Below are positions 1,736-61,711 of a stretch of 64,000 nucleotides of DNA, piece after piece. The notes beneath the pieces are model-generated. The model worked only from the letters and a program-made list of their open reading frames with translations, had not been told where the DNA came from and made no database searches. Location: contig JAJQEU010000109.1 of assembly GCA_021201535.1 (NCBI GenBank), positions 1,998 to 65,997 of the forward strand, in the 5' to 3' direction. The stretch's first letter is position 1. Every line of letters begins with the position of its first letter. The position numbers and the translations under genes are program-made. This DNA comes from Clostridiales bacterium (GTDB taxonomy: Bacteria > Bacillota > Clostridia > Lachnospirales > Lachnospiraceae).

Positions 1736-1924
1736 CTATGAAAGTGTCGTGAATAGACAGTCAGATGGGGTGCTTGCACACCCAGATGACTGGATATTCG
1801 ACGACCAAGACGGTACGAGCAAGTAGCGCGATAGCGCGGATTGCGAGTACCGGCGGCGATTGCGGGAGTGCGAAGCACGGAGCAATCGACTTTCATAGAA
1901 GTTGGCGCGCTGCGACAGCAGCGC
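1736..1924. repeat. Structured intergenic element: 10-bp closing inverted repeat with nested hairpins (MITE/bcr1-like or ncRNA)
   Basis: CTATGAAAGT (1736-1745) pairs with ACTTTCATAG (1889-1898). Internal stems are CAGTCA/TGACTG, GGTAC/GTACC and CGATTGC/GCAATCG, with GCGC-GATA-GCGC and GTGC-GAA-GCAC mini-hairpins. An extra hairpin lies at 1907-1924. Confidence 0.6.
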
Positions 1925-7864: not shown

Positions 7865-7976
7865 GCCCAGACTCCTCTTTTTGTATCTCACTCCATTTCA
7901 TGGTTTTCACGAATACGTCTTCAATATACTATATCTTATCCATTTTTACAATAAAAAAACGCTTGTACGCGGGAAG

Positions 7977-8020
7977 AAAAAAGACCGGAATCCGATTTTT
8001 CCTCGGATTCCGGTCTTTTT
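7977..8020. terminator. Intrinsic terminator of the SH3/hydrolase gene
   Basis: AAAAAAGACCGGAATCCGA-loop-TCGGATTCCGGTCTTTTT. Confidence 0.85.
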
Positions 8021-8055
8021 GACACATCCATCAACTCTTCAAAAGAATCTGTTTT

Positions 8056-44788: not shown

Positions 44789-45496
44789 ATGTCAGATTCA
44801 CAGAGCACCCATACCATCTCCACCGATTTCATGGACTGTTTTCTGACGCTCTCCCGGGGCAGCAAACGTCTGGAAGCATTAGGACAGCCTGAATTTTTGA
44901 AAAAGGGAACCATTCTCGTCCGTTCCGGTGAAATCCCCGGATATTGCTATATTGTCCGGACGGGACGCGTCATCTGTTATGAGTTCTCCTTCAACGGAGA
45001 GCAGCGGATCTACAATTTTATGGAACCCGGTTCCCTGCTTCTGGAGGAGTTTCTGCTGTTTGACAGACCGTGTCCGATTTTTTTCGCGACAGCGCTGGAT
45101 TCCGAGTTGGTAAAAATCACGAAACAGGATCTGACCGACGCGCTGCGGCGGGATTTTGATATCGTCATGGACGTCTGCGAATCCATCTCCGCCAAACACC
45201 TTTCCGCGATGGAATACCAGCGCGTAGGGTACCATCAGGATGCGGGCTGGCAAATCTGCCGTTTTCTCCTGCTTCTGATCGAGCATTACGGGGAAAAAGA
45301 GAATGGCCGGATACAGATAACGGAAAAGTTTTCCCATCAGATGATCGCCGATTTTCTGGGCATGAACCGCGTTACGGTCAGCCGAAAGCTGAAGGAGCTC
45401 CGCTCTCTCGGCCTGATTGCCTCTGAAAAGGGGAAACTCAGTGTTCCGGACGTCAACGCTATCAAAAAGTACATGGACTCTATTCAGGGATTTTAG
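44789..45496 (+). CDS. Crp/Fnr family regulator
   Basis: cNMP-binding barrel (CYIVRTGRV...GEQRI) and HTH SHQMIADFLGMNRVTVSRKL. Confidence 0.92.
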   Translation: MSDSQSTHTISTDFMDCFLTLSRGSKRLEALGQPEFLKKGTILVRSGEIPGYCYIVRTGRVICYEFSFNGEQRIYNFMEPGSLLLEEFLLFDRPCPIFFATALDSELVKITKQDLTDALRRDFDIVMDVCESISAKHLSAMEYQRVGYHQDAGWQICRFLLLLIEHYGEKENGRIQITEKFSHQMIADFLGMNRVTVSRKLKELRSLGLIASEKGKLSVPDVNAIKKYMDSIQGF

Positions 45497-45511
45497 GAAG
45501 GAACTGCCGTC

Positions 45512-46222
45512 ATGAAAAATCCAAACTACGTAAAACCTGTCAGTTTGTGGAATTCCTCCCGGATTCTTTCGCCGGACTTTATTCTGCCCTGTCTGGAAAA
45601 GCTTGGTTCTGCGAAAAAAGTTCCGAAAAACACTTATATTTACCGTTCCGAGGAGATTCCGGACTGCTGCTATATCGTAAAAAGCGGGGAGGTCATCGCT
45701 TTGGAGACGACCTCCGGTGGAAATGAGTTCCTCCATTTCCTTATGGACGAAAACGCCATATTCGGGGACGTCAATATGCTGATGGAAAAACCTCTGCCCA
45801 TCCGCTTCCGCACAGCGACGGACTGCGAGTTAATCTGCATCCCGAAGGAAAAACTGATGACGGCGATCGCACAGGATTCCCGCATTTTCATGGAACTGTA
45901 TCTCTCCGCCGCCAACAAGTTTCTGGATTCCATAGAAGAGCTGAGGGAATTTAAGCTCTATCCGGCATCCTGGCGTCTGATTAAGATGCTTCTTACTTTC
46001 GCGGACAAATACGGAACGGATTACGACGGAAAGCTCCTCATCCGACGCAAACTGAGCATCAACTATCTGACCGCCCTCATCGGCGTCAACCGCGCCACCA
46101 CTATCCGGTCGCTGAACGGCCTGAAAAAAGAGAAGCTGATTGAAACCGTCAACGGCTTCTACTGCATCCGGGATCCGGAAGCCCTCAAAAGATATCAGGC
46201 TCGCCTTGCCGAGGATCTGTAG
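45512..46222 (+). CDS. Crp/Fnr family regulator (tandem paralog)
   Basis: CYIVKSGEV...IFGD and HTH LTALIGVNRATTIRSL. Confidence 0.92.
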   Translation: MKNPNYVKPVSLWNSSRILSPDFILPCLEKLGSAKKVPKNTYIYRSEEIPDCCYIVKSGEVIALETTSGGNEFLHFLMDENAIFGDVNMLMEKPLPIRFRTATDCELICIPKEKLMTAIAQDSRIFMELYLSAANKFLDSIEELREFKLYPASWRLIKMLLTFADKYGTDYDGKLLIRRKLSINYLTALIGVNRATTIRSLNGLKKEKLIETVNGFYCIRDPEALKRYQARLAEDL

Positions 46223-46254: not shown

Positions 46255-47373
46255 TTATTTTTCGGCAGTACTGACCGCGTGCGTCAATATAAATTCCCTT
46301 GCTTTGTCCCGGATCAGCTGCGCCTCCAGCGCATCCCGATCCAACGTCCGGCAAACCTCATCAAAATCCGCCGCGCACTGCTCTGCAATCCGCTCCATTG
46401 CCTGAAATACCTCCGGCTCGCCGACCCGGATCCCCTCGCGATCCGCCACCGCCGTAAACAGCACATCAAACAACGCCGCATCCCTGGCCTGATCCCTGTG
46501 TTCATCTCTCCACTGCTTTTCACTGAGTTCCATCGACCCAAGCCGGGTTTCAAACATCTCGTCACAAATTTCATCGTTGCTCATGGACGACTTTAAGTGT
46601 GCCCTCTTTGTCTGAATCTCACGCAGCTTCTGATCAAAATCCGCCGGAAGGTCATGATAACGCCTGACGCACTCTTTCACCCCTGCAAGAAAACAGTCGA
46701 TTTCTATTCCCTGTTGGTCTGCCGAGACAGACTGAAGCATATAATCCATGGCTTCCGCGCGAACCTGAGACATCGGCCGGTGTACATCCGCCGCGTGATA
46801 CGCCTCTCGCAGCAGATAAACACATTCTGTCAACATACGGCACACCGGATCCTGCACGGCAGCTGCTTTTTCCCGTGCCTCCATGGCATCCAGGCGGGCT
46901 TCCGTCATCGAATCCGGCAGGACGGTTTTCATATTTCTGCAGGCTTTCGTCAGCACGTCCGCCGCAAATCTCTCCTCATCATCCCGCGGCACATCGGTCC
47001 GGATCCCTTTATAGGGACCTAATGTCGCATCCGGATATACATCCGCTTCCACAAGAAAACGGACGCCTCCGTCCCCACGCCAGGTTATCTCCCGCAGACA
47101 GGGTTTCCCTACGGGATGAAGACGCGTTTCCCTCACGTACTGCCGGTACGCTGCGGGAATGCACAGATCGAGTGCTTCGTCATAAAGGACCCGCGGTCCG
47201 TATATTTTTTCGATTTCCTCCCGCGGCGCCAGTCCCGGTGCGTATCCGGGCACAACGATTCTATCCGTATGTTCCAGATACGCGTCATGGAGCGCCTTCG
47301 CGAACTCCTCCGGCTCCAGAATCAGCTCCGTTGTGATCGCGCCGTCCTTCCTCTCCTCGTGTTCTGCTCTCAT
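46255..47373 (-). CDS. Atypical trigger-factor-like protein (N and C domains, no FKBP domain)
   Basis: Tig N-domain pattern (VPG..PG.AP..EIEKIYG...YDEA...LGPYKG) joined to a Tig C-domain pattern (LPDSM.E...D.M; LF.AVADREGI.V.E). Confidence 0.75.
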   Translation of the reverse strand: MRAEHEERKDGAITTELILEPEEFAKALHDAYLEHTDRIVVPGYAPGLAPREEIEKIYGPRVLYDEALDLCIPAAYRQYVRETRLHPVGKPCLREITWRGDGGVRFLVEADVYPDATLGPYKGIRTDVPRDDEERFAADVLTKACRNMKTVLPDSMTEARLDAMEAREKAAAVQDPVCRMLTECVYLLREAYHAADVHRPMSQVRAEAMDYMLQSVSADQQGIEIDCFLAGVKECVRRYHDLPADFDQKLREIQTKRAHLKSSMSNDEICDEMFETRLGSMELSEKQWRDEHRDQARDAALFDVLFTAVADREGIRVGEPEVFQAMERIAEQCAADFDEVCRTLDRDALEAQLIRDKAREFILTHAVSTAEK

Positions 47374-47388
47374 ATCCGCCCTCCGATC

Positions 47389-48039
47389 CTACAGAATCAC
47401 CTTCGTTTCCGTACCGATCCCTCTCAGAACAGACATAAGGATGGCGGCGTCGTGCTCCTGCGCGTACTTTTCAAGGATATCCCGAAATGTTTTTTCCTCA
47501 TCCTCCTCCCGCGCCAGAGCGCCCAGTTCTATCAGATCCGCCCCGTAGCCGCTCATTTCGTCCAGCTTTTTCAAAAGCTCATCTTCCTCCGGCATGCGAT
47601 CCGGATAAATCCAGGTCAACACCGACTTCCGGTTATAATTGGCCGCCTCAAAAAGAATCGACCGTGTCGCATCCTCATAGGGGAGCAGCGGTGCGCTGAT
47701 CAGATCCGTGCCCTGCTTTGCCGCCTGCACAGCCAGCCTGGCGATATACATATATTTTGCCGGGTGTTTTCCCCCGATCACCGCATCCCGGAAGCTGAAC
47801 ATCAACGGTTTTTCTTTCGCCGCCTCCCGCACCGCTTTCAGTGCGGACGGCACCTCCTTAAAGGTAATCTCAAAGATATCGTCATGCTCGTCGCTGCGCC
47901 ACTCGATCGCCGCCACAGCCGGGTCGGCCGCCAGCGCTTCTGTCTGTGCGATGATATCTTTCCTGGAAGCCGCTTTCACGATACCGATGGCTGCTCCCGC
48001 TGTCAATTCTGTCCGGTTGATTTTAATTGTTCTGCTCAT
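47389..48039 (-). CDS. Type I 3-dehydroquinate dehydratase (AroD)-like protein, catalytic residues absent
   Basis: IEWRSD, PLMFSFR...GG and GADL.E.; His and Schiff-base Lys positions substituted; C-terminus short. Confidence 0.7.
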   Translation of the reverse strand: MSRTIKINRTELTAGAAIGIVKAASRKDIIAQTEALAADPAVAAIEWRSDEHDDIFEITFKEVPSALKAVREAAKEKPLMFSFRDAVIGGKHPAKYMYIARLAVQAAKQGTDLISAPLLPYEDATRSILFEAANYNRKSVLTWIYPDRMPEEDELLKKLDEMSGYGADLIELGALAREEDEEKTFRDILEKYAQEHDAAILMSVLRGIGTETKVIL

Positions 48040-48419
48040 TTCCCTGTTTCTTCCTTTCCCTCTGTACCAGATCTTTTTTTAAAAATCGCCGCTACGTTTC
48101 TTCCATATTTAAATTCATAAGAGATCTCATCCATCCTCGCATGCGTACAGGGACTCCGGTCATCCCGGACGGGATTATATAATCCTCCGGCATGCACAAA
48201 CTGCAGACCGACGCCCTCCGTGGACAGGCTGGCGGACACGGTCAGCATGCCCTCTCCCCTGTCCGCGCCGCAGATATTTAAAAACAATTCCAGCGCGGAG
48301 GCCGTAACCGCTTCCTTCCACTCGCCGGAAAATCCGGAATCCGCGTCGCCAAGGCACCGCAGATACTCTTCAAACCACGGCAGGTTCTCCCGCGCCGGAA
48401 CAATGGCCAGCTTTTCCAC
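48036..48419 (-). CDS. Degenerate RsbW/anti-sigma HATPase-like small protein
   Basis: GTG start overlapping the upstream TAG, GGAGGTG RBS; ELFLN N-box and MDEISYEFKYGRN tail. Confidence 0.55.
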   Translation of the reverse strand: MEKLAIVPARENLPWFEEYLRCLGDADSGFSGEWKEAVTASALELFLNICGADRGEGMLTVSASLSTEGVGLQFVHAGGLYNPVRDDRSPCTHARMDEISYEFKYGRNVAAIFKKRSGTEGKEETGK

Positions 48420-48850
48420 TAGCGGATCACCTCCACTTCCTCCTCCTGTCTGGAACACAGAAAAGCCTCGTGCCCTTCCTCCAGCTCGCGAACATCCGCC
48501 TCCCGCAGATCCGCTCCGGTCAGCAGCATTTCCTCGACACGCGCCAGAAGCTCCAGCCGGTTTTTGTCTTCCGGAGATGCGTAAAACAGCGACATCCGGC
48601 TGATCGCTCCAAACCGGTTGATTTCCCTCGACAGATGAGGAAGAAGTGCCAGTTCCGTGAGCGAAAGCTCCCATGGGTCGCCCACGGGCCGATCTTCCGT
48701 CTGTCCGGCCGCAGGCAAAGGGTGAAACACGCACGTCACCCCGCCGCTGGTATACTCCTCGCCCATGACCGCCTGAAGCTTTCCGTACTCTTCCCGGATA
48801 TAAAAATCCCGTTCTTCACGAATCAAATCCCGGATTTTATCTCTGTCCAT
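48419..48850 (-). CDS. Hypothetical protein (143 aa)
   Basis: Overlaps both neighbours, GGAGG RBS; no motif recognised. Confidence 0.65.
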   Translation of the reverse strand: MDRDKIRDLIREERDFYIREEYGKLQAVMGEEYTSGGVTCVFHPLPAAGQTEDRPVGDPWELSLTELALLPHLSREINRFGAISRMSLFYASPEDKNRLELLARVEEMLLTGADLREADVRELEEGHEAFLCSRQEEEVEVIR

Positions 48851-50384
48851 ATCTTCCCTCCCTGTCAAATCCATCTAAGTCCAATTGTTCCAGACGGGCG
48901 ATCCTGTCTGTGATACTCTTTTTTCGCTCCTCAAACTGCAGTTCCCTGTTATACGTATAATATTTTTCACATCCGTAATGTCCGATAAACCGTGCGCAGT
49001 AATAGTTCGCCGTGAGCTCGGTCACAAGAATCAGCATCTCATCGCCGTCCGAAAAAGCTTTTTCACAAAAATCAAATGTATTTTGGAGAATCCGCTGCGC
49101 TTCCTCCACCTCGCTCCGCAGAGAAAACAGGGTATCGTCATAGGTCTCCCGGATGATCGTAAAATCGTCCTCACCGGCGTTCTTTTTTAATATCTTTTCC
49201 CGGTACAACTCGAGCTGCGCGGCAACGCGGCGGGTTTCCTTTTGCTTTTCAGGGGACAGGGATGAGGATGCCCTGCCCTTCGCAATCTCCTCCCTCATTT
49301 CCCCGCAGTATTTTTCCAACAGCTCTGCTGCGGGAGCACCGTCCGCAATCTCCGGCCCAATCTGCCGAACCAGCCTGACCAGACGGGCGAGCATATCCTC
49401 CGTGTCGCAGATGCCTCTCATTTTCGTCGTAACCGCCCCAAAGATAATTCCCAGAAGAGAAAACCTCTCGTCTATTTTAGCCGTCGAAGCCCGCGCGACA
49501 ATATCCTCGGAAACCGTTCCGTCCAGGATCGCGTCGATTTTATAATCGCTCCGGTATTTGTGGTACAGGTCATAATAAATAGCAAAATCCCTGGCGATCT
49601 TCGGATCCTGCAGATACTGGCAGACCAGCCTGTCGTTGACGACCAGCCCGTTTTCTTCATACAGCTTTATCATCTCCGAGAGATCCTCCCAGCTTCGCGC
49701 GGTCACAAAAGTTTTGCCGTCCACAGTACTTTGAACCCGGTAAAAATCATCCGTTTTCGCGTAAAGATACGTCATGACCGCCGGATGTACGCCGTTCCTG
49801 TAAGCATAATCCTTCCAGACCTCATAATCCGGCTCCACATCGATCCGTTTCAGGCGATCCCACGTGACAATATCAAAATCCCGAACCGATTTATTATACT
49901 CGGGCGGGTTTCCCGCAGTCACTACGATCCACCCCTCCGGCAGCCTGTGCTGTCCGAAGATCTTAAACTGCAGAAACTGCAGCATACAGGGCGCGAGCGT
50001 CTCGGAAATGCAGTTGATCTCGTCCAGGAAAAGAATCCCCTCCGTGATGCCGGTATCCCGCATCAGGTCATAGACCGATCCGATGATCTCGCTCATGGTG
50101 TACTCGGAAACCTGATACGTCTTTCCGCCGTACTCTTTTTCCACAATATAGGGAAGGCCCAGGGCGCTCTGTCTGGTATGGTGCGTCATGGAATAGGAGA
50201 TCAGACCCACGCCCAGCTCCGAGGCAATCTGCCGCATGACGGCCGTTTTTCCGATTCCGGGCGGACCGATCAGAAACACCGGCCGCTGTTTTTCCGTGGG
50301 GATTTTATAACATCCGAATTCATCCTTCGTCAGATAAGCTTTCAGCGCTCCCCGGATCTGTTCTTTTGCCTCAGCGATATTCAT
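48837..50384 (-). CDS. MoxR-type AAA+ ATPase with a long helical C-terminus
   Basis: GPPGIGKT, LFLDEIN, AGNP and WDRL. Confidence 0.88.
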   Translation of the reverse strand: MNIAEAKEQIRGALKAYLTKDEFGCYKIPTEKQRPVFLIGPPGIGKTAVMRQIASELGVGLISYSMTHHTRQSALGLPYIVEKEYGGKTYQVSEYTMSEIIGSVYDLMRDTGITEGILFLDEINCISETLAPCMLQFLQFKIFGQHRLPEGWIVVTAGNPPEYNKSVRDFDIVTWDRLKRIDVEPDYEVWKDYAYRNGVHPAVMTYLYAKTDDFYRVQSTVDGKTFVTARSWEDLSEMIKLYEENGLVVNDRLVCQYLQDPKIARDFAIYYDLYHKYRSDYKIDAILDGTVSEDIVARASTAKIDERFSLLGIIFGAVTTKMRGICDTEDMLARLVRLVRQIGPEIADGAPAAELLEKYCGEMREEIAKGRASSSLSPEKQKETRRVAAQLELYREKILKKNAGEDDFTIIRETYDDTLFSLRSEVEEAQRILQNTFDFCEKAFSDGDEMLILVTELTANYYCARFIGHYGCEKYYTYNRELQFEERKKSITDRIARLEQLDLDGFDREGRYGQR

Positions 50385-50415: not shown

Positions 50416-50526
50416 CCATCCCGGTGTTTCCTCTCTGATGAAAAACATGACCGTCCCGGCGTTTTTTACTCCGATGAAAAAGATAGCCGTCCCGGCGTTT
50501 CTGCTCAGATGGCAAACATAGCCATC
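50416..50526. repeat. Degenerate ~35-bp tandem triplication overlapping the LRR gene stop
   Basis: Units at 50416, 50451 and 50487: CCRTCCCGGYGTTT...GATG..AAA.AT.. Confidence 0.7.
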
Positions 50527-52379
50527 ACATCAATTTCGCTGCCGGAAGCTTTTCTGTGTTCCAGCAGCGCAGCGACCATCTCCATCTTCTTTTCCCGCTG
50601 GGCGCGTTCCAGCATATTCGTAAAAAGCTCCGTCCCAATCGCAAAATGTCCGGAAATATACGTCGCGGCGTCCGGCAGATTTCCCGTGACCACGGCGGAC
50701 AGGGTCTTTTCCAAATGGCTTCGGATGTATTCCCGGTACCCGGCGGCGATTCCATCCGTATATCGATCCGCGGCGCGGCAGTATCCGATGGCGGCAAAAA
50801 TCTGATCTTCCTCATCGAACTCCCCGATCGCCATTCCCGGAGCCGTGACGGAGATCAGGCTGTGGCATTGCGAAAACGGCTTTTCATGCAGCTCGCCTAC
50901 CGTCCGCGGCAGTTCGATCTCCTGCAGTGACTCCATGCCGGTAAAGGCGCGGGGACCGATTTTCTCCACGCTTTCCGGAACATATATAAACCGGATCTCC
51001 TTTTTGCCGGAAAAAGCGCCGCCCAGGATCTCCCGGATTCCTTCCGTCAGACGAAGTTCAGAACCCCGGGCGCACAGGCCGACGCATGCGCCGTCCGCCA
51101 CGACAAATCCATTCGCGTCCGCCAGCGCCGTACAACCGTCAAAACAGCCCTCGCCCAGTTCCGATATCCCGACCGGAACGGAAATCCCGACAAGACCTGC
51201 GCAGCCGGAAAATACACGCGCCCCCATATGCTCCAGAGAATCCGGCAAACGTATCCGCGCCAGCGAACGGCATTGCCCGAACGCCCCGGTTTGAAGCGAA
51301 CAGACACCGTCGGCGATATCCACCCGCTCAAGAGCCACGCACTGGGAAAACGCATCCTCCGGCACCTCCGAAACCGACGCAGGAACAGACACCTCCGTAA
51401 TGCTTCTCAGTCCCGAAAAGGCGCTTTCTCCGATAAATTCCAGGCCGTCCGGCAGCTTCAGCTCCCGGATACATCTGCAAAGGCAGAATGCCCTCCTTTC
51501 GATCCGCTTTACCGTATCAGGAATGGAAATCTTCTCGAGAGAAATACACTCATAAAAAGCGTCGATCCCGATCCGTTCCAGCCCCTCCTCCAGATTAATC
51601 CGGCTCAGATTACTGCAGCCGGAGAACGCCCAGTCTCCGATTGCCTCCACCGGTCCGTTAAACTTCACGTCGACCAGCGCGCTGCAGCCGAAAAACATCC
51701 ATCCGCGAAGCGTTTTCAGGGATGCGGGAAATTCAATCCGGTGCAGTCCCCTGCAGCCGGAGAACGCGCCTCCCTCAATCTCCTCGATCCCGTTTTCAAA
51801 GGATATGTCAGCCAGGCGCTTGCAATCCTTAAAACAGCGCCATCCGATCCGCCGGACGCTCCCGGGGATATGGATCCGGGTCAGGCCGGAGCATTCCCGG
51901 AAAGCCCTCCATCCAATCCGCAAAAGTGTACCGGGCAGTGTTATCTCATCCAGAAGGATCCTCTCCGCGAATGCGTCCGCGCTGATCTCCTCCACGCCGG
52001 CCGGCACCGACGCTCTGCGTATATTGCGCCTTGCCTTCAAAAGACACCGGCCGAGAATCAGGAAATCCTCCTGCCATTCGTTTTCATTTTCGCTGTAATA
52101 CTTATAATACGGAGTTCCCTTAAAGGCGTCATTCCCGATATGGCAAAGCGTCTGCGGAGCCCGGACTGCTTGCAGGTTATCACACCAGAGAAACGCCTCG
52201 TCCTCTACAGATTCTACGCCCTCCGGGATCACAATCTCCCGCAGGGAACGGCAGTTCTGAAACGCTTTCTCCCCAATCGTGCGCACGCCGTCCGGAAGCG
52301 TAAGATACGGCTCCTGTCCGCGGTACTTTACCAGCACCCCGTCTGTTATCTCAAAAGCATTCTCATCATCACGGTTCAT
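50505..52379 (-). CDS. BspA-type (LRR_5) leucine-rich repeat protein without a signal peptide
   Basis: About 20 repeats of LxxIxIPxxVxxIGxxAFxxC; N-terminal DGVLVKYRG cap. Confidence 0.92.
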   Translation of the reverse strand: MNRDDENAFEITDGVLVKYRGQEPYLTLPDGVRTIGEKAFQNCRSLREIVIPEGVESVEDEAFLWCDNLQAVRAPQTLCHIGNDAFKGTPYYKYYSENENEWQEDFLILGRCLLKARRNIRRASVPAGVEEISADAFAERILLDEITLPGTLLRIGWRAFRECSGLTRIHIPGSVRRIGWRCFKDCKRLADISFENGIEEIEGGAFSGCRGLHRIEFPASLKTLRGWMFFGCSALVDVKFNGPVEAIGDWAFSGCSNLSRINLEEGLERIGIDAFYECISLEKISIPDTVKRIERRAFCLCRCIRELKLPDGLEFIGESAFSGLRSITEVSVPASVSEVPEDAFSQCVALERVDIADGVCSLQTGAFGQCRSLARIRLPDSLEHMGARVFSGCAGLVGISVPVGISELGEGCFDGCTALADANGFVVADGACVGLCARGSELRLTEGIREILGGAFSGKKEIRFIYVPESVEKIGPRAFTGMESLQEIELPRTVGELHEKPFSQCHSLISVTAPGMAIGEFDEEDQIFAAIGYCRAADRYTDGIAAGYREYIRSHLEKTLSAVVTGNLPDAATYISGHFAIGTELFTNMLERAQREKKMEMVAALLEHRKASGSEIDVMAMFAI

Positions 52380-52438: not shown

Positions 52439-54040
52439 TTAAGACGATAAACTGTCCTCCCGCAGCACAACCTTCATTGCCCAGTGCGGAACCTCGGGCG
52501 TTTCTCGCCCCGTATCCAGAAACACAAACGCCGTGTCATATTTCGGCGGCATGGCCGGATAAGTTCCATAGCCGTCCGTAAAATAAATCATCCCCCGCAG
52601 ATTGGAAAATTCATGGCGGCGGAGCAGCCCGTCGACATATGTGAACACCGGACGGAAATCCGTTCCTCCGAAGCCCTTTAAGCTCATACCCTCCATATAT
52701 CGGTCAAACTCTTCCTGCGAAGTGATTTTCTGATCCTCCTCCACCCGCGCGCCGCACTGTATGATATGCACATTGACCGTAGTGAAAAAATTTTCACTCT
52801 GTTTCATGATATTCCAGGTCTTTGCGACAAACGCCTGCACGACCTCGCCGGCGACGGACTGGGATGTATCCAGTGCGATCACAAACTCCCGCACCTTTCG
52901 GACCTCTTTGGACTCCAACGGTTCGATCAGTGGCATCCTTCCGTACCGTTTCATCGCCCAGGTATACAAAATGGGGTCAAATTCATCGTCGTTGACCTCG
53001 ATATTCTCCCCGAGAACGGAAAACTTTCTCAGAAATTCAGCGTAATCGTATCTCTCCCGGCTGATCTCCCGCAGCGCCTGTATCAGATTGCCGTCGGAAC
53101 TGCCCCAGGTATCCGGCATGGTATCCAGTTCTACCCGGATCCGCTCCGAAATCTCCTGCCACCGGCGTTTTAATTCCTCCGGCGACAGCGCCTGCCGATC
53201 CTTTATTTCATCTTTCCGGTTTTCGTCGGAGGGCAGGCCTCCTGTGTCTGTCGAATCCTTTTTCTCTCCCGCGGGATTCCCGCCGGCGGCGTCCGTCTGC
53301 GGGGCATCCTCCGCGTCCGGTTCCGGCGGTCCGGCGCCGCCCGGGCTATCCGCGTCGCCCGTCTCCGGCGGCGTTTCCTTCGCGTCCTCCGTCCGGTCAG
53401 AGCGTTTCCCTTCGTCGGAACTGTCCGGCGCGGATGGTTCTCCGTACCAGAATTCATGGTCGTCCGCGTAAAAATACTCCCGCAGCCGTGTCATCTCGCT
53501 TTTTTCCAGCCCGGACTCTTTGAAATGCCGGTAGATCCGCTCCGCGGTCAGGGCGGGCAGCTCATCCTTTAACCGGACGATCAGCCACTGCTGCCGCTCC
53601 TGGCGTTCACAGAAAAATGTCTTCACATTCTGCTCCGCGATGATGTTTTCCACCATAATATCACAGGAGAGATCCCAGAGCTCCCGGTCAATCTTCGCGT
53701 CCACAAACAGATGGCGAAACACACAGTGGAGAACCAGATGCAGATAATTCCGGTTCACGATCGCCGGCGACCGCTGAAACTGTCTGCACAGGTAATCCGA
53801 ATGATAGAACAGGCTTCTCCCGTCCGTAGCAATCTCCGGTGTCGCGCTCTCTTCCCCGAACCGGATCTCAAGCAATGCCGATTCCAGAAAACGGAAATTC
53901 AGCAGGATAGTATTGCGGGAAAGGCGCAGAATATCCTTCGACAGGTCCGAAGCTTCCCGCCGCCTCCTCATATCGTCTAAGTCAGCATAATGTCCGTCGA
54001 AAGTCCGAGCATATTTCGGCAGCTGATCCGCAGTCTCCAT
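52439..54040 (-). CDS. DUF2201-type metallopeptidase-like and VWA domain protein
   Basis: ATDG...Y, HLVLHCVFRH, acidic linker, MIDAS LDTSQS, GGTDFRPVF and YFTDGYG. Confidence 0.88.
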   Translation of the reverse strand: METADQLPKYARTFDGHYADLDDMRRRREASDLSKDILRLSRNTILLNFRFLESALLEIRFGEESATPEIATDGRSLFYHSDYLCRQFQRSPAIVNRNYLHLVLHCVFRHLFVDAKIDRELWDLSCDIMVENIIAEQNVKTFFCERQERQQWLIVRLKDELPALTAERIYRHFKESGLEKSEMTRLREYFYADDHEFWYGEPSAPDSSDEGKRSDRTEDAKETPPETGDADSPGGAGPPEPDAEDAPQTDAAGGNPAGEKKDSTDTGGLPSDENRKDEIKDRQALSPEELKRRWQEISERIRVELDTMPDTWGSSDGNLIQALREISRERYDYAEFLRKFSVLGENIEVNDDEFDPILYTWAMKRYGRMPLIEPLESKEVRKVREFVIALDTSQSVAGEVVQAFVAKTWNIMKQSENFFTTVNVHIIQCGARVEEDQKITSQEEFDRYMEGMSLKGFGGTDFRPVFTYVDGLLRRHEFSNLRGMIYFTDGYGTYPAMPPKYDTAFVFLDTGRETPEVPHWAMKVVLREDSLSS

Positions 54041-54120: not shown

Positions 54121-56559
54121 TTAATCCCGCTCCGGCAGCGGCGGCATCGTATCAAACTTCTGTCTCAGATCCTCCGCTCCGAATTCAGTCTTTCCCGTTT
54201 TTTCATTTTCACGAAGCGCTCTCCACAGGCGTTCCGGCGTAATCGGAAGCTCCCGAAGCGTCAGGCCGGTCGCGTAGTTGATCGCGTTGCCGATCGCCGA
54301 ACCGACCGGTGCGGTACTTCCCTCGCCCGCCTCCTTCGCCCCAAGCGGTCCTTCCGGATCGTATTCGCTGCAGATAAAGGTCCTGATATTCGGCATATCC
54401 AGAGCCGTCGGGAAACGGTAATCACGAAAGCTCGGATTTAAGTGCCGACCCTCGCTGCTGTACTGGCACTCCTCATAACAGGTAAAACCGAAACCGAGCA
54501 GTACGGAACCTTCGATCTGCCCCTCCACCGCGCGGATATTCAGCGGCCTTCCGCAGTCATGCCCGAACGCGAAATCGTCAAGCGAAACCTGTCCGGTCTC
54601 CTTATCCACCGTAACCTTCGCCGCCGATGCGGAGAAAGAATACGCGGTCGCGTAGTTTCCTACATTTTTCACATAAATATCCTTGTCGCCCTCATGCGCG
54701 AACGAACCCACGCCCACGACGCAGCGTCCGAAGTTTTTCTCCTCATATCCGAACAGCGCCTCATTGTAAGAAATATTCTTTTCCGGGTCGCCCTTGATAA
54801 AGACGCGGTGGTCCTTCATGGTAATGTCGGAGGGTTTGCACCCCCACTCCTCTGCCCAGTGGGAAAGCAGCTTGAACTTTGCGTCTCCCACCGCCCGGTG
54901 GCAGGCGTTTCCGCCGAGGAAAGTCACACGGGAGCCGAAGGAACCCGCATCCCACGGCGTCGTCGTCGTGTCGGACTGCACACACTTAACCTCGTCCATC
55001 CGGAGCCCCAGCTCCTCCGCCACGATCATCGTCATCACCGTATCGCATCCCTGCCCGATGTCGTTGGCGCCGGTAAATACAACCGCGTATCCCTCACGGT
55101 TCAGCCTGACGATCGTGGAAGCCGAACAGTAATGGGGCGTTACCAGTACGGGGAACCCGGTGCCGGACATGAATCCGGAGCCCGACAATCCCACGCCCTC
55201 CCCGCTTCCGAGCGGATACCGCCACCTGTGTTCCCAGTCGATCGCATCAGCAACCGCCGTCAGGCACTCGTCAAATTTACAGGAGGTAAATTCCAGACCG
55301 GTAGGGCCGGTATAATACGGCGTAATCTCATTATCACGGCGCAGCTTCAGCGGATCGATGCCAAGGGAATTCGCCACCTCATCCATGTGTATCTCATGGG
55401 CGAAATGTACCTGACACGCCGAATAACCTCTCATGGCGCCGGAAGCGGGGTGGTTGGTGTATGGCCTCCGCGCCGTCATGTCGATGTTTTCCACCTTGTA
55501 GGGAAAGGTCGCGCAGATCAGCGAAAGGGTATTGGCCGCAATGCCGGATCCTCCGTAGGCTCCCCCGTCCAGGATATGCTTGCAGCGTTTTGCCAGAAGC
55601 TTTCCTTCCTTTGTGAAAGCGCTCTCAATCTCAAAGGAAATGGGATGTCTGGTTCTTGTACACATAAATACCTCATCCCGCTTTAAAATGCACTTGACCG
55701 GATGGCCGGTCATCTGTGCGAACTTGCACGGGCAGAGCTCATGGGCGAATGCGTCCAGCTTTCCGCCGAACCCGCCGCCGATCATCGGCTTGATCAGATG
55801 CACCTGGCTCTCCGGCACACCAAGCCCCCAGGCAATCCAGTAACGGCTGACATAAGCGCCCTGCGTCGTCGTCCAGATCGTATATTCCCCATTCTCGTAC
55901 TTTGCGATCGCCCCGTGCGGCTCAATCGCCGCGTGAACCATCTCCTGCGTCTTATAATAATGCTTATCCGTGTAATAGGCTTCCTCAAACACCCGGTCCG
56001 GCTCTCCCGCCTTCATGGTGGTAAAAATAGAGAGATTACCCGTCCCCGGATAATGGATCGCCGGAGCGTCCGGCTGCATGGAGTAAAACGGATCCAGCAC
56101 CGGTTCCAGCGGTTCGTATTCTACCTTTACCAGCGCCGCCGCCTCCGTGGCGGCCTCCTCCGTCGTGGCGCAGACCGCGGCGACCTCGTCGCCGGCCATA
56201 CGGACCTTTTTACGGCACAGCGGCTCCTTGTCCGCCAGCTCCTTGAAAGCCTCAGGGTTCCCCAGGTTGTGTCCCTCCGGGAAATCCTTTCCGGTAAGCG
56301 TCGCCTTTACCCCCGGCACCTTCAGCGCTTCCGTGAAATCAATGCTTTTGATGAGCGCATGGGCGTAGGGGCTGTGTACCAGCTTACAATACCATGTGCC
56401 GGGCAGATCCACGTCGTCCGTATAGACCGCGGAGCCGGTTACCTTTGCCTCCGCGTCGATCCTGATATACGCGTTTCCCCTGCCTGCCAGTTCATAATCC
56501 TCGGGATCCTTGTATACGCTCTCTACATCCGCGTAATATTCTTTCGCCATAACCGCCAT
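54121..56559 (-). CDS. Xanthine-oxidase-family molybdopterin-binding large subunit (HcrA/CoxL-like)
   Basis: AKVTG...Y.DD, HAAIEPH, TTTQ, GGGFGGK, GAMRG, DIGQG, SRVTF.GGNA, EGQIEG and GAKEAGE; TAATG coupling to the 2Fe-2S gene. Confidence 0.93.
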   Translation of the reverse strand: MAVMAKEYYADVESVYKDPEDYELAGRGNAYIRIDAEAKVTGSAVYTDDVDLPGTWYCKLVHSPYAHALIKSIDFTEALKVPGVKATLTGKDFPEGHNLGNPEAFKELADKEPLCRKKVRMAGDEVAAVCATTEEAATEAAALVKVEYEPLEPVLDPFYSMQPDAPAIHYPGTGNLSIFTTMKAGEPDRVFEEAYYTDKHYYKTQEMVHAAIEPHGAIAKYENGEYTIWTTTQGAYVSRYWIAWGLGVPESQVHLIKPMIGGGFGGKLDAFAHELCPCKFAQMTGHPVKCILKRDEVFMCTRTRHPISFEIESAFTKEGKLLAKRCKHILDGGAYGGSGIAANTLSLICATFPYKVENIDMTARRPYTNHPASGAMRGYSACQVHFAHEIHMDEVANSLGIDPLKLRRDNEITPYYTGPTGLEFTSCKFDECLTAVADAIDWEHRWRYPLGSGEGVGLSGSGFMSGTGFPVLVTPHYCSASTIVRLNREGYAVVFTGANDIGQGCDTVMTMIVAEELGLRMDEVKCVQSDTTTTPWDAGSFGSRVTFLGGNACHRAVGDAKFKLLSHWAEEWGCKPSDITMKDHRVFIKGDPEKNISYNEALFGYEEKNFGRCVVGVGSFAHEGDKDIYVKNVGNYATAYSFSASAAKVTVDKETGQVSLDDFAFGHDCGRPLNIRAVEGQIEGSVLLGFGFTCYEECQYSSEGRHLNPSFRDYRFPTALDMPNIRTFICSEYDPEGPLGAKEAGEGSTAPVGSAIGNAINYATGLTLRELPITPERLWRALRENEKTGKTEFGAEDLRQKFDTMPPLPERD

Positions 56560-57041
56560 TATGCACGCACCTCCCTCGCCAAAACCTTCGCCGCGGCGTC
56601 GATTGCCTCCACGATCTTCGCATAGCCTGTACATCTGCACAGGTTGCCCGCGATACCGTCCCTGATCTCCTGCTCCGTGGGATGCGGATTTTCATGCAGC
56701 AGAGATAACGCGGACATGATCATGCCCGGTGTACAGAAGCCGCACTGCAGCGCCCACTTATCCATAAATTCTTTCTGCACCGGATGCAGCACTCCGTCCT
56801 TTTTGACACCTTCGATCGTCACGACCTCATGGCCGTCCGCCTCCACGGCAAGCATCATGCAGGAATCAATCGCCGCCCCGTCCAGGAGAATGGTGCACGC
56901 GCCGCATTCTCCTTCCTCGCAGCCTCTTTTCGTACCTGTCAGATGCATCTGTTTCCGGAGGAAATCCACCATGGTAAGCCCGTCGGCGACCAGCTCCTCC
57001 ACATCCTCTCCATTAAGTTTAAAGCTAATGATATGTTTCAC
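56559..57041 (-). CDS. 2x[2Fe-2S] small subunit (CoxS/XdhC-type ferredoxin subunit)
   Basis: GCEEGECGACT, QCGFCTPG and GNLCRCTGY. Confidence 0.96.
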   Translation of the reverse strand: MKHIISFKLNGEDVEELVADGLTMVDFLRKQMHLTGTKRGCEEGECGACTILLDGAAIDSCMMLAVEADGHEVVTIEGVKKDGVLHPVQKEFMDKWALQCGFCTPGMIMSALSLLHENPHPTEQEIRDGIAGNLCRCTGYAKIVEAIDAAAKVLAREVRA

Positions 57042-57056
57042 GCTGATTCCTCCTTC

Positions 57057-57944
57057 CTACACTTTCCGCGTCGCGACCGCTTCTTTTATGGCACGCTTTG
57101 TATAGACGCGCACCATATCCGCCCGGTACTCCGCGGATGCCCGGACGTCGGAAATGGGCTTCGCCTCTCCCATGGCCAGCCGGCCGGCTTCCTCCAGCGT
57201 CTCCTCAGTGATCTCTCTGCCTTTTAAGAACTCCTCCGCCTGACAGGCGCGCAGGGGAGTGATCCCGACGCCTCCCATGGCGATTCTCACATCTGCAACC
57301 GTTTTTTTATCCATCCGGATCCACGCCGCCACTCCGATAATCGCCAGATCCATCGCCTTCCTCACAGAATGCTTAAAATAAGCGGATCCCTCACCGGACT
57401 TTAACGCCGATATCAGAATCTCCGTCACAATCTCCCCGCCGTTTTTATCCAGGCAGGTCTTTTTGACGCCCTTGAAAAATTCTCCGATCGGGATGATCCT
57501 GCCGCCTCCCGGACGGTAAGTGGAAACCTCCGCGTTCATCGCCAGTAAAATCGAAGCGGTATCCGCGGACGGCGATGCGTTGCAGATATTTCCCGCCATG
57601 GTTCCCTTGCGGCGGATCTGAGCGGAAGCCACATAATGCGCCGCCTGAGAAACCGCGGGCATCTTTTCCCTGACAAGGTCAGATGTCTGGATGGCGAACA
57701 GCTTTGTGTTCGCGCCGACCCTTAGCCCTCTCCCTTCTTCAAATTCCAGCGTATCCAGCCCCGGGATCCCCTTGATATCGACCACAGAATCCACATCCTT
57801 TAAGACACGCTCTTTCAGCAAGATGATCACGTCCGTCCCGCCGGACATAAGAATCGCGCGCGGACCAAGCTCTGTCATTTTCGCAGAGGCTTCCTCCAGA
57901 CTTCGGACCGCGTAATAATCAATTGCCGGTAAAGCCATACTCAT
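57057..57944 (-). CDS. FAD-binding medium subunit (CoxM-type)
   Basis: GGTDV, ASAQIRRKGTMAGNICNASPSAD and ISDVRASAEYR; no [4Fe-4S] Cys insert. Confidence 0.94.
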   Translation of the reverse strand: MSMALPAIDYYAVRSLEEASAKMTELGPRAILMSGGTDVIILLKERVLKDVDSVVDIKGIPGLDTLEFEEGRGLRVGANTKLFAIQTSDLVREKMPAVSQAAHYVASAQIRRKGTMAGNICNASPSADTASILLAMNAEVSTYRPGGGRIIPIGEFFKGVKKTCLDKNGGEIVTEILISALKSGEGSAYFKHSVRKAMDLAIIGVAAWIRMDKKTVADVRIAMGGVGITPLRACQAEEFLKGREITEETLEEAGRLAMGEAKPISDVRASAEYRADMVRVYTKRAIKEAVATRKV

Positions 57945-58760: not shown

Positions 58761-59681
58761 TTACCCCTGCTTTATGAAAACCGCCGTCCCGTGAAGATCC
58801 ATAAGGGGAACGACAAACAAACCGTTTTCCTCACAGTAACGCCGCGCCGCCCTGCGGACGCCCGGAAACTGCAGGCTGTTATAATCATGGAGGACAATGC
58901 ATCCGCCCGCCGCCAGCCTGGGATAGAAAAACCGCAGCCCCTGATAAACCGGCTCGCCAAGATCAGGATCCAGACTGACCAGCGCAAGTTCTCCCATCTC
59001 ATCCGACAGTCCCCCCGAAACACTATCCGGGAAATATCCTGCAATCAGGCGCGCCTTCTCAGGATAAGGAAGCCTTTTTTCGACTGTCTCCACACTCGTA
59101 TCCGAGAAATCGCACAGACGCGCAGAGGCCTTTCTTCCATCGGGGACAATCCTCCTCTCGATCTCGAGATCCCGCGCATCAAAACCACAGAACGTGTCAA
59201 ACAGAAAAAGCCGGCGTTCGGGAAACAGCCGGTTCAGCTCGACCGCCGTATCTCCCCGATAGACGCCAAGCTCCGCAATGCTGCCGGAGACTCCTCTCTC
59301 TCGGATTTCCCGCGCCAGCAAACGGATCACGGCAAGCCTGGCGTCCTGGCTGCCGCGGTAAAACAGAGCCTCCCTTATGTCCCCCACAAAACCGGCCTGT
59401 AAAATCTGATTTTTGATCCCGGTATTCGCCTGTCTGTTTAAAGTCCCGATACAGATCACATCCGGCCGCCGATCCAAAGCACACAACAGCGGCAGGACCG
59501 GAACGCCATCGATCTCGCTTCCCTGCAATGTTTCATCGTTATCAATATAACAGATCAGCTGGTGATCCGCAGGCAGCCAGGCCGAAATCATCCGCCCAGC
59601 CTGCCCGGCGCCGAAAATTGCCGTTCGAACCGCGTCATTCGTCCGGTCGTTGATTCTGTCACACTTTTTAATTGTCGTCAT
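58761..59681 (-). CDS. TylF/MycF/NovP-family O-methyltransferase with an N-terminal Rossmann-like domain
   Basis: IFGAGQAG N-domain; AELGVYRG, LFDTFCGF, GYFPDS, LVSLDPDL and LHDY; ATGA overlap with xdhC. Confidence 0.85.
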   Translation of the reverse strand: MTTIKKCDRINDRTNDAVRTAIFGAGQAGRMISAWLPADHQLICYIDNDETLQGSEIDGVPVLPLLCALDRRPDVICIGTLNRQANTGIKNQILQAGFVGDIREALFYRGSQDARLAVIRLLAREIRERGVSGSIAELGVYRGDTAVELNRLFPERRLFLFDTFCGFDARDLEIERRIVPDGRKASARLCDFSDTSVETVEKRLPYPEKARLIAGYFPDSVSGGLSDEMGELALVSLDPDLGEPVYQGLRFFYPRLAAGGCIVLHDYNSLQFPGVRRAARRYCEENGLFVVPLMDLHGTAVFIKQG

Positions 59682-60718
59682 ATTGCCTCCAGGAGTACAT
59701 CCAGAACACCGCCGCAGACCATGCCCTCGTCCTCCGCTGCCTCCGCGGTCATATCTACATGAATCAGCTCCGGTGTGAAGGAATCCCTGATCATAAGCTG
59801 CCGGCCACGGTTTGCCACCTCGGCTTCCACACAGCCGCCGCCGATCGTTCCGATCGTCCTTCCATCCGGCAGAATCAGCATCTTGGTTCCGGTCTCCCGA
59901 GGTGCGGAACCCCTGCGCCTGACAATCGTCGCCAGAACCTCTCTGGATGCGCCGCACCCCGGAATCTCCGGAGGCTCCAGAATGCCTTTTAATATTTCCT
60001 TTGAGTATCCGCAGTGATTCTTTTTCTTATTCTTGACCTCCACAATCTGAGCCATGACCGAGATCGCGATTTCTTCCGGGGTCTCCGCCCCGATATCCAG
60101 GCCGATCGGAGAATAGACCTGATCCAGCACGCTTTTATCTACTCCCTCCGCAACAAGAGATTCCTTCACAAGAGCGACCCTCCGCCGGCTTCCGATCATA
60201 CCGATATAACCGTGCGGCTTTGCCGCGATCGCCCGCAGACATTCCCTGTCATACCGATGCCCTCTGGTCACGATCACAAAATAGGTGTCCGCGTCTCCGC
60301 TCACCTGCCGGAGGCTGTTTTCAAAAGAATCAACAAGAATTTCATCAGTGCCCTGCCGTCTCGCGTTGTTTGCGTACGTCGGCCGATCCTCCAGTACGGT
60401 AACATGGCAGCCCAGCATCCGACCCATGGAAATGATCGGCATGGACACATGCCCGCCGCCGCAAATCACAATTTTTTTCTCGTTTCCGAGTATCTCACTG
60501 TAAATACGATTCCCCGCCAGATCGGCCAGACCGCAGATATCAATCCCTGAAATTGCTTTTTCGTAACTGGAAAAAAAGCCCCTGTCCTCTGTTTCCCACA
60601 CGAGTTTTCCATTTGAAAACAGCGCTTTTTTTCCGATTTGATCACCCTCGATCACTGTAAAGACCTGATTCCTGTAATTTGGGTTGATCCTGCTGATTTT
60701 TTCATATAATTCGATCAT
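59678..60718 (-). CDS. XdhC/CoxI family Moco chaperone (Rossmann domain before the CoxI domain)
   Basis: GGGHVS, IVTRGH..D, YIGMIGSRR, PIGLDIGAETPEEIAIS, GSAPR..G.KM, GTIGGGC.E and CGG. Confidence 0.92.
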   Translation of the reverse strand: MIELYEKISRINPNYRNQVFTVIEGDQIGKKALFSNGKLVWETEDRGFFSSYEKAISGIDICGLADLAGNRIYSEILGNEKKIVICGGGHVSMPIISMGRMLGCHVTVLEDRPTYANNARRQGTDEILVDSFENSLRQVSGDADTYFVIVTRGHRYDRECLRAIAAKPHGYIGMIGSRRRVALVKESLVAEGVDKSVLDQVYSPIGLDIGAETPEEIAISVMAQIVEVKNKKKNHCGYSKEILKGILEPPEIPGCGASREVLATIVRRRGSAPRETGTKMLILPDGRTIGTIGGGCVEAEVANRGRQLMIRDSFTPELIHVDMTAEAAEDEGMVCGGVLDVLLEAI

Positions 60719-60766
60719 ATAAAGCCCCTCCATTCTGATCTGATTCATATGATATTGCTATTGCTT

Positions 60767-61711
60767 CTACATAATATTCTCCCGCCGCCAGTCAGCGTCC
60801 GGAAAGATATCGTCATACTTCTTTTTCGCAAACTCTTCTATCTGGCCCACGTATTCCTCATACAACGCCAGCAGCCGTCTGCCCCGTTCGGACACTGACG
60901 CCGTGCCTCCGTTTCGTCCGCCCGGCTTTCGCTCAATAATGCGATAGCCCAGTTCATCCTCCGCGAGCTTAATGATATGCCATCCCTTGCTGTAGGAAAT
61001 ACCCATTTTTTCACACGCATCCCGGACATTTCCCAATCGATCTACCAGACGCAGCAGCGTGGCCGTTCCCTGACCGAAAAAATGCTGTTTACCGGCCAGA
61101 TGCACCCGCACCTCCGCCCGCATCAGACGCTGATCGTGAAGACGTACCAGTCTCTCAAAATCCGTCTGCGTATCTGCGTCAATCATGGCGCCTTCATCCG
61201 TTACCGGAAGCAGATACGGCACGATATCCATGGACAAAAAAGCTCCTTTCAGCCCTCCTTCACCCTCATAACGCAGAATGTCCGGCAGCAGCCCGGCGTC
61301 GATCAGAACCGGATGCCCCCACTTTTCCCGGCTGACGGGTATAATCAGCGGTTCTTCCCGCGAAAGCTCTTCATGCACCGTATGTTCCGTAAACAAAGCG
61401 ACATCCGCCGGGCAGAAAAAGACGCGGTCACACCGTCCTTTAAGAAAATCAAAACCGATTTTTGCCGAGTCAAGCATCTGCGTCGTCTCGTAATTGCGAT
61501 TCTCCAGGAAAGTAACTCCCAGATTGTTCAGGCTTTTCCTTAACTCCTCCGAGCGGTAACCGGTAACCACAACGATGTCCCTGACCCCGCATTTTCTGAA
61601 ATTTACAATGACCCTTTCCGTCAGCATCATGTCCCCGATCTTCATCATCTGTTTAAACTGCTTCATTCGGGTGGACATGCCCGCCGCAGCAATTACCGCA
61701 CCTGTTCTCAC
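60767..61711 (-). CDS. MocA/MobA-like nucleotidyltransferase fused to a ModE-type winged HTH
   Basis: IAAAGMSTRM, D...F, GHPVLI and DADT..D; C-terminal A...MGISYSKGW...ER..GG..GG...S..G. Confidence 0.85.
   Translation of the reverse strand: MRTGAVIAAAGMSTRMKQFKQMMKIGDMMLTERVIVNFRKCGVRDIVVVTGYRSEELRKSLNNLGVTFLENRNYETTQMLDSAKIGFDFLKGRCDRVFFCPADVALFTEHTVHEELSREEPLIIPVSREKWGHPVLIDAGLLPDILRYEGEGGLKGAFLSMDIVPYLLPVTDEGAMIDADTQTDFERLVRLHDQRLMRAEVRVHLAGKQHFFGQGTATLLRLVDRLGNVRDACEKMGISYSKGWHIIKLAEDELGYRIIERKPGGRNGGTASVSERGRRLLALYEEYVGQIEEFAKKKYDDIFPDADWRRENIM

Follow-up and report, generated by a model that had tools for sequence, protein, structure and literature searches.

Trigger factor (TF), the product of tig, docks on ribosomal protein L23 through its FRK residues and holds unfolded chains with its helical C module. 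PceT, a member of the same family, has no N domain but has retained the peptidyl-prolyl isomerase (PPIase) and C domains, and it binds its client at the Tat signal peptide. The gene for this TF-family protein lies in the pceA operon, and its product acts as a chaperone for the PceA preprotein (PMC3403914); the work on PceT, Morita 2009 and Maillard 2011, is taken here as cited in PMC3403914 and PMC8905343. Here, we describe a trigger-factor-like gene, TFL, at 46255..47373 on the minus strand of a 64,000-nucleotide stretch from a Clostridiales bacterium of the Lachnospiraceae (contig JAJQEU010000109.1; hereafter, the window). TFL keeps the N domain and the C module of a TF, has no PPIase domain, carries an altered ribosome-docking loop, and is the last gene of an operon that encodes a molybdoenzyme of the XDH family. 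We consider it somewhat probable that TFL is an operon-specific chaperone or assembly factor for this enzyme, acting off the ribosome and using the altered loop as a new docking site.

The closest functional analogy to TFL is PceT/RdhT, which is likewise TF-derived, encoded in the operon of an enzyme with a complex cofactor, and believed to serve a single client away from the ribosome. In keeping with this analogy, TFL was found within the operon of its putative client, as the last gene, behind a 15-nt spacer and in conserved synteny at all loci. The two differ in that the architecture of TFL is the inverse of that of PceT (N plus C, no PPIase) and in that its candidate client is an XDH-family molybdoenzyme, not a corrinoid dehalogenase. 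No twin-arginine motif was seen by eye at the N-terminus of the FAD (MSMALPAIDYY...), Fer2 (VKHIISFKLNG...) or Mo (MAVMAKEYYAD...) subunit.

Canonical TF is homologous to TFL in the N domain and in the start and end of the C domain, shares its acidic isoelectric point (pI), and is its best structural match. TFL differs from it by the missing FKBP PPIase domain, by G[YF]AxGLAP in place of GFRxGxxP, by a helical insertion of ~100 amino acids (aa) in the C module, and by its location in a molybdoenzyme operon in only 13 species genomes. The PPIase domain is reportedly dispensable for the chaperone function of TF, as is said to have been found by Kramer 2004, Genevaux 2004 and Merz 2006. The engineered, PPIase-deleted E. 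coli protein TF-NC has the same N plus C architecture as TFL; however, TF-NC, like the natural PPIase-less TFs described below, keeps the docking motif and does not have the C-module insertion.

Additional TF copies are known from a survey of 15,575 genomes, 390 of which, including 209 from Clostridia, had multiple TF homologs; in 367 of these 390, just one copy had the ribosome-binding motif (PMC11559001). The extra copies were shorter, chiefly through loss of the N domain, a pattern that the survey explained by a dosage constraint on ribosome-binding TF (PMC11559001). Such motif-less duplicates, among them the Myxococcus MXAN paralogs and those of Clostridia, resemble TFL, which has no GxRxG and is shorter than the housekeeping TF. 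Yet they keep the PPIase and C domains, whereas TFL keeps an N domain with an altered loop and has lost the PPIase, and linkage to a molybdoenzyme is not reported for them in that survey (PMC11559001).

Reviews of molybdoenzyme maturation describe chaperones of the XdhC type (PMC10609526, PMC2997495), and one of them the MoxR-like AAA+ protein CoxD; neither mentions a helper of the TF type. XdhC/PaoD, CoxD (a MoxR AAA+ protein) and CoxE (VWA) are, like TFL, operon-encoded helpers, and XdhC, AAA+ and VWA-like proteins are all encoded in the TFL operon, but TFL is unrelated to them in fold and sequence. Similarly, the papers on the urolithin dehydroxylases (ucd/uxd), XDH-family enzymes of Enterocloster, do not mention a TF-like accessory gene. 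Full-text literature searches turned up no account of a natural TF paralog that has an N domain but lacks the PPIase domain. Operon-specific TF paralogs, as exemplified by PceT, and motif-less TF duplicates of Clostridia are already known; what appears new in TFL is an operon-specific paralog with the inverse of the PceT architecture and a new putative class of client.

Domain architecture of TFL

The open reading frame (ORF) of TFL begins with ATG and encodes 372 aa plus a stop. A Shine-Dalgarno sequence, GGAGGG, read directly from the sequence at 47379..47384 (minus strand), lies 5 nt before the ATG, and the stop of the upstream gene at 47389-47391 leaves a 15-nt spacer to the TFL start; no terminator-like site was found between the two genes. 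We searched the protein against the Pfam and NCBIfam profiles. Pfam Trigger_N (PF05697) matched residues 4-129 with an E-value of 1.1e-20, and Trigger_C matched only residues 252-363, corresponding to profile positions 49-161 of 162 (E-value 2.3e-11), while FKBP_C gave no Pfam match even at E<=10. The NCBIfam profile TIGR00115 (‘tig’) scored 100.9 bits, below its equivalog cut-off of 180.2, and Pfam SurA_N on residues 302-365 scored 26.5 bits, below its gathering score of 30.8.

To map TFL onto canonical TF, a profile of the TFL family was compared using hhalign with a profile of 14 canonical TFs of the Clostridia type. TFL residues 1-129 corresponded to canonical residues 1-129 with 100% probability, and residues 275-369 to canonical 329-423 with 99%. 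Between these blocks, a local match of residues 134-245 to canonical 283-393 (87.6%) was obtained, of which only the start was taken as meaningful: residues 134 to ~165 align with canonical 283-315, the ‘A.eNa..diP..Mie’ helix pair, which in TFL reads ACRNMKTVLPDSMTE. Because the hhalign blocks skip from 129 to 283, the alignment indicates that canonical ~130-282, comprising the linker, the FKBP domain and the first C-domain helix, is missing from TFL.

These correspondences divide the protein, all on the minus strand, into a TF N-terminal domain (residues 1-129, 46987..47373; identified by Pfam, hhalign and Foldseek), the start of the C module (residues 134-165, beginning with FAADVLTKACRNMKTVLPDSMTE; 46879..46974; identified by hhalign and by the model helices H133-147 and H154-174), a family-specific helical insertion (residues ~166-274, 46552..46878), which fills the gap between two hhalign blocks, and the C-terminal part of the TF C domain (residues 275-372, 46258..46551; hhalign 99%, Pfam Trigger_C 252-363). 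By alignment, the insertion comprises ~85-110 helical residues compared with ~13 at the same place in canonical TF, and the model predicts helices at H176-194, 201-217, 225-237 and 246-263 within it. It also bears the second most conserved stretch of the family, the motif RPxaQVRAEA(L/M)DxMLQtVSxdN near residue 207. An origin of the C module by internal duplication was considered, since the canonical stretch in the local match of residues 134-245 overlaps the one aligned with residues 275-369, and rejected, as a direct comparison of its two halves gave an hhalign probability of only 4%; the middle segment is therefore an insertion.

An AlphaFold2 model of TFL, built from 21 homologs, had a predicted local distance difference test (pLDDT) score of 88.9. 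The modeled N domain is of the beta/alpha type, and past residue 127 the chain is predicted to be helical except for two short strand or bridge marks, so the model has no FKBP sheet. The top Protein Data Bank (PDB) matches of the model in Foldseek were full-length trigger factors (3gty, 3gu0, 2vrh and 1w26; E-values of 1e-9 to 2e-7), and against the isolated E. coli N domain 1oms the target-normalized template modeling (TM) score was 0.78 with a root-mean-square deviation of 2.9 Å. When the C module was modeled alone, the pLDDT was 90.3.

A preliminary description of the gene, made from its sequence, had reported a Tig N domain with VPGYAPGLAP in place of the canonical motif, no FKBP domain between LGPYKG and the start of the C domain at LPDSMTE, and about 100 extra helical residues, and had named a domain scan and a structure prediction as checks. 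Both have now been run, and the description of the architecture proved correct throughout: Trigger_N and a partial Trigger_C were detected without any FKBP domain, the three strings lie at residues 41-50, 118-123 and 152-158, respectively, and the extra helical residues could be placed inside the C module.

An altered ribosome-docking loop

The signature loop of TFL, VPGYAPGLAPR (residues 41-51; 47221..47253, minus strand), replaces (I/V)PGFRxGKAPR. We aligned it across 21 homologs sharing 39-89% identity with the window protein. Residues V41, P42, G43, A45, G47, L48, A49 and P50 were invariant and R51 nearly so, giving the family consensus VPG[YF]A[PA]GLAPR, which departs from the signature GFRxGxxP; no GxRxG occurs within the first 100 residues. 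The three basic residues of the loop were replaced in 21/21 homologs (R45 by A, K46 by P, A or S, and K48 by L), whereas the canonical TFs recovered in the same searches all carried PGFR(K/P)GK(A/V)P(R/K). At the same time, no 11-mer of the family is better conserved than the loop, whose mean column identity is 0.94 compared with 0.60-0.66 in every other region. Since it is the best conserved stretch, the loop seems to have changed its function rather than lost it, and, judged by its sequence, it looks like a repurposed docking site, neither decayed nor lost.

An E. coli TF in which FRK was changed to AAA reportedly loses its docking on the ribosome and L23, a result attributed to Kramer et al. 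2002. TFL matches two of the three positions of that mutant, in addition to having lost the three basic residues in every member of the family, and we infer that it no longer binds ribosomes. It is conceivable that TFL instead remains bound to the ribosome through the modified loop and acts co-translationally, mainly on the chains made from its own polycistronic mRNA. Its N domain is complete and has the canonical fold, the length of the loop, G43, G47, P50, R51 and the aromatic residue at position 44 are conserved, and the family has a pI of 4.6-5.0, acidic like that of canonical TF. Moreover, other metagenomic TFs of 301-375 aa, for example P0075, P0156, P0157 and P0160, have no FKBP domain and keep the canonical PGFRxGKAPR; there may therefore be natural N plus C trigger factors that have probably kept their docking on ribosomes. 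Loss of the PPIase domain alone is therefore neither unique to the TFL family nor a sign of having left the ribosome. Nevertheless, relatives of TFL in equivalent operons have dropped the loop or the entire N domain, and the dosage constraint disfavors a second ribosome-binding TF (PMC11559001). Together with the lost basic residues, these observations make continued ribosome binding improbable. The preliminary description had called TFL independent of the ribosome and lacking the docking motif. The absence of the canonical motif is confirmed. Independence of the ribosome is backed indirectly, by the replacement of R45, K46 and K48 in all members and by the sister lineages that drop the loop or the N domain; it is held back by the loop being the best conserved part of the protein, which makes it look like a repurposed docking site.

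Selection and distribution

The ratio of nonsynonymous to synonymous substitution rates (dN/dS) of TFL was 0.20 (dS 0.28) against an 89%-identical ortholog and 0.18 (dS 0.20) against a 93%-identical one. ORF length in the family is steady, at 369-382 aa, and the alignment holds 49 invariant columns. Because dN/dS is ~0.2 and the ORF length constant, we conclude from these sequence comparisons that TFL is under purifying selection and is a functional gene, not a relic.

The contrary explanation, that TFL is what is left of a duplicated tig, no longer functional and decaying while it hitch-hikes with the operon, could draw on its fast evolution (39-47% identity compared with 89-91% for the enzyme subunit), its reduced domain content and at least one frameshifted copy. 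This explanation is largely refuted by selection and conservation and appears very improbable: besides the dN/dS and the invariant columns, intact ORFs of the full length occur in several families of Clostridia, the loop and the insertion motif are highly conserved, and the AlphaFold model is confident.

The frameshifted copy, in locus L106 (10001-11112; L numbers denote loci and P numbers homologous proteins), is broken after about residue 156 and called as products of 211 and 159 aa; the frameshift is either an assembly error or a sign of a pseudogene. We had considered the 211-aa homolog P0030 as a further, ‘N-domain-only’ architecture, but L106 shows it to be a frameshifted copy of a full-length gene like that of P0027. 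Other 211-aa proteins matching Trigger_N only are P0029 and P0054.

In a scan of one genome per species, covering 185,579 species, TFL was found in 13, all metagenome-assembled genomes (MAGs) of uncultured Clostridia. The hosts belong to Lachnospiraceae, Oscillospiraceae, Candidatus Scatomorpha, Candidatus Limivicinus and ‘Eubacteriales’. When 1.84 billion representative proteins were searched with a profile, 100 matched at E<=1e-30; ~20 of these were full-length TFL representatives (350-400 aa), after which came fragments, members of a shorter subfamily, and canonical TFs. One TFL homolog is labeled ‘trigger factor family protein’ by NCBI. Because it is rare and scattered, the distribution fits that of an accessory gene, unlike the housekeeping tig. 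Within the 64-kb window, no second TF was found.

Linkage to a molybdoenzyme operon

At all loci with enough upstream DNA, TFL is preceded by genes for the Fer2 and Mo subunits, a DUF2201 protein, a leucine-rich repeat (LRR) protein, an AAA+ ATPase, the small protein u143 and, usually, a DHquinase-like (DHQ-like) protein, in that order. This order was kept even where TFL itself is just 39-47% identical. The Mo subunit is 89-91% identical across MAGs of Lachnospiraceae and Oscillospiraceae (L004, L007, L012, L014, L015 and L019), compared with 32-65% for its operon partners. Recent horizontal transfer was considered as the source of this ~90% identity and ruled out, since synonymous sites of the Mo gene are saturated (proportion of synonymous differences, pS, 0.70-0.94); with a dN/dS of 0.01-0.04, the identity reflects extreme purifying selection. 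The closest protein cluster of the Mo subunit comprises 1,112 member sequences.

Linkage to the enzyme also survived rearrangement. On a 1.5-Mb contig (L103), a 373-aa TFL is left with only a u143-like protein and a Mo subunit of 81% identity, and the AAA, VWA, LRR and DHQ genes are absent from the locus. In another locus (L104), which has a 78%-identical Mo subunit, a 231-aa TF-like protein (7751-8446) corresponding to TFL residues 148-361 is encoded upstream of the FAD gene, and the 540-nt gap before it holds no remnant of an N domain. In a third group, the A3 subfamily (320-336 aa, defined by alignment A3), the signature loop is deleted; an A3-type gene lies directly before the FAD gene in L102 (1156-2166), and another lies two small ORFs ahead of the FAD and Fer2 genes in L024 (238-1221). 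A homolog search with the A3 alignment found only two family members, on short contigs, and a metagenome scan with the A4 alignment recovered mostly canonical TFs and only three relevant loci. The relatives of TFL thus form a reduction series, from an altered loop through a deleted loop to no N domain; all are without FKBP, and most adjoin XDH-family genes. This series beside XDH genes speaks for a conserved function that resides in the helical C module and can do without the ribosome. The suggestion in the preliminary description that the protein is dedicated to its operon is strongly supported by the recurrence of the same Mo-enzyme operon at all loci with enough flanking DNA and by an XDH linkage that persists through three gene orders. 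The 58%-identical Mo enzyme of Dehalobacter restrictus is accompanied by neither a TF-like gene nor AAA/VWA genes.

The rearranged loci also bear on a different role for TFL, namely that of a fixed adaptor or subunit of the machinery formed by the AAA+, DUF2201, LRR and u143 proteins, on which the loop would dock and to whose ATPase TFL would present the client. As the most conserved element of TFL, the loop points to a specific contact between proteins; TFL and u143 are found together at every locus, the reduced L103 included; and maturation of Mo enzymes by AAA+/VWA pairs is exemplified by CoxD/CoxE (PMC2997495). However, L103 has TFL without nearby AAA, VWA and LRR genes, the loop-less relatives in L024 and L102 adjoin XDH genes with no such machinery on their short contigs, and L104 has the full machinery although its TF-like protein is without the N domain and hence without the loop. 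We accordingly regard a fixed adaptor as unlikely, if less so than continued ribosome binding.

In L103, CRISPR repeats (GAATCCTATCCATATTGGAATTTAAAT) at ~9650-10000 abut the start of the Mo-subunit gene, which is without its first 55 codons; cas1, cas2 and cas3 lie just ahead of the repeats, and no FAD or Fer2 genes were found upstream of the Mo gene.

Gene content of the operon in the window

All operon genes in the window are on the minus strand, with a MocA-like gene first and TFL last. The MobA/MocA-like nucleotidyltransferase (60767..61711) has a C-terminal helix-turn-helix (HTH) domain (Pfam NTP_transf_3, 2e-26, and HTH_1), and is followed by an XdhC/CoxI-family chaperone for insertion of the molybdenum cofactor (Moco) (59678..60748; XdhC_C 2e-41, XdhC_CoxI 8e-21). 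Next come a TylF-type methyltransferase (58761..59957; TylF 5e-19, in the C-terminal 190 aa), the true start of which is probably farther downstream than that of the listed ORF, and a 220-aa protein with the start RHGE (58095-58757). In other loci, a TylF gene comes after TFL instead.

The enzyme itself is encoded by genes for a 295-aa FAD-binding medium subunit (57057..57944; Pfam FAD_binding_5 and CO_deh_flav_C), a 160-aa 2Fe-2S small subunit (56559..57041; identified by NCBIfam and by gene calls with Fer2 and Fer2_2) and the 812-aa molybdopterin-binding large (Mo) subunit of the XDH family (54121..56559; Pfam). The nearest solved relative of the Mo subunit is the alpha subunit of 4-hydroxybenzoyl-CoA reductase (PDB 1rm6_A, 8e-111), and it scored under every NCBIfam equivalog cut-off.

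Downstream of the enzyme lies a gene for a 533-aa protein (52439..54040) that combines the metallopeptidase-like DUF2201_N with the VWA-like DUF2201 (Pfam; 51-57% identity across loci) and for which no sequence relative was found in the PDB. A 624-aa BspA-type LRR protein without an apparent signal peptide (50505..52379; LRR_5 4e-137) follows, and then a 515-aa AAA+ ATPase (48837..50384; Pfam AAA/AAA_5, MoxR-like), which is 56-65% identical in all loci and matches solved structures, such as midasin, only in the Walker region. The LRR protein stands between the VWA-like and AAA+ genes in all loci (40-46% identity), an odd partner for a maturation pair of the MoxR/VWA type.

The gene for u143, a 143-aa protein (48419..48850), has no Pfam match and is present in all loci; proteins of this kind (~143-160 aa) always accompany the Mo subunit and TFL, and are also found in L103 (12144-12626) and L104 (18475-19092). 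The DHQ-like gene is split in the window into an N-terminal half of 127 aa (48036..48419; assigned by alignment, no Pfam match) and a C-terminal half of 216 aa (47389..48039; Pfam DHquinase_I 1.9e-14), joined by ATGA such that the TGA stop of the first overlaps the ATG of the second. In other lineages, it is one protein of 335-350 aa, and the split is common to the window and the 89%-identical locus L010. The N-terminal part bears a conserved DE(I/V)S(Y/F)EFKYGRN motif.

On the plus strand, two tandem regulator genes of the Crp/Fnr type (235 and 236 aa; 44789-46222) run toward the 3' end of TFL, the facing stop codons being 32 nt apart. Genes of the Crp type are likewise found beside the operon in L104 and L106. 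Far from the operon, at 1736-1898 (plus strand), the window holds a full-length match to the Clostridiales-1 small RNA family (RF01699; 122.9 bits compared with a gathering score of 48).

A candidate assembly factor for the molybdoenzyme

Our preferred reading is that TFL would be co-transcribed and translationally coupled with the operon and would serve as an ATP-independent holdase or assembly factor, off the ribosome, for the XDH-family enzyme encoded upstream. We infer that its most likely client would be the 812-aa Mo subunit or an FAD/FeS/Mo assembly intermediate, which TFL would keep soluble and open until XdhC brings the cytosine-dinucleotide form of Moco. The AAA+/VWA-like pair would then complete maturation of the enzyme, and the invariant loop VPGxAxGLAPR may now dock on a non-ribosomal partner.

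Several observations weigh against this reading. The proposed client follows from gene linkage, which ties TFL to no particular protein of the operon, and the operon already has the XdhC chaperone and the AAA+/VWA pair, leaving the need for an extra holdase unexplained. The dN/dS of TFL is ~18 times that of its proposed client (0.20 vs 0.011), and this faster evolution is unexpected for a tight, specific interface, though common for holdases. The loop retains its Gly/Pro scaffold, the aromatic residue at 44 and R51, with which residual ribosome binding would be compatible. The isolated C module resembles TF (3gty), 2nsa and SurA (1m5y) weakly, with a best Foldseek E-value of 0.02, and its match to SurA 1m5y_A, at a Foldseek probability of 0.99, extends across just 75 columns. 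Finally, relatives of the A3/A4 type in L022 and L023 have no XDH genes within reach.

The entry 2nsa among the weak structural matches is a Thermotoga maritima TF domain. As possible clients in L022 and L023, we considered the ORFs of 1,246 and 1,308 aa that lie upstream of the A4-type genes, and set them aside because they look spurious, at least in part: they match nothing in Pfam or the PDB, their C-terminal part has an odd composition, and they overlap opposite-strand genes for DUF1015 (in both) and a DEAD-box helicase (in L022).

A broader proposal is that TFL and its loop-less and N-less relatives constitute an unrecognized class of TF-derived assembly chaperones for XDH-family molybdoenzymes, in which the loop has been re-tooled for the Mo subunit, u143 or the AAA+/VWA proteins and which is required for active enzyme. 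We put this forward tentatively, as a possibility that we doubt somewhat more than we credit.

If the role proposed for TFL is true, a helper of the TF type would join the known maturation factors of molybdoenzymes (XdhC, CoxD/E), and TFL would represent a natural case in which the ribosome-docking loop was repurposed and not simply lost. Its relatives supply a graded evolutionary series, in which the loop is altered, the loop is deleted, and the N domain is gone. Special hosts have been needed to express XDH-family enzymes from gut Clostridia heterologously, the urolithin dehydroxylases among them (PMC12658268), and a dedicated chaperone may be what has been lacking for expression of the ~90%-identical Mo enzyme and for finding its substrate. 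If the broader proposal is also true, gut Clostridia would possess a class of chaperone that is needed for the activity of a highly conserved and very abundant HcrA-like enzyme.

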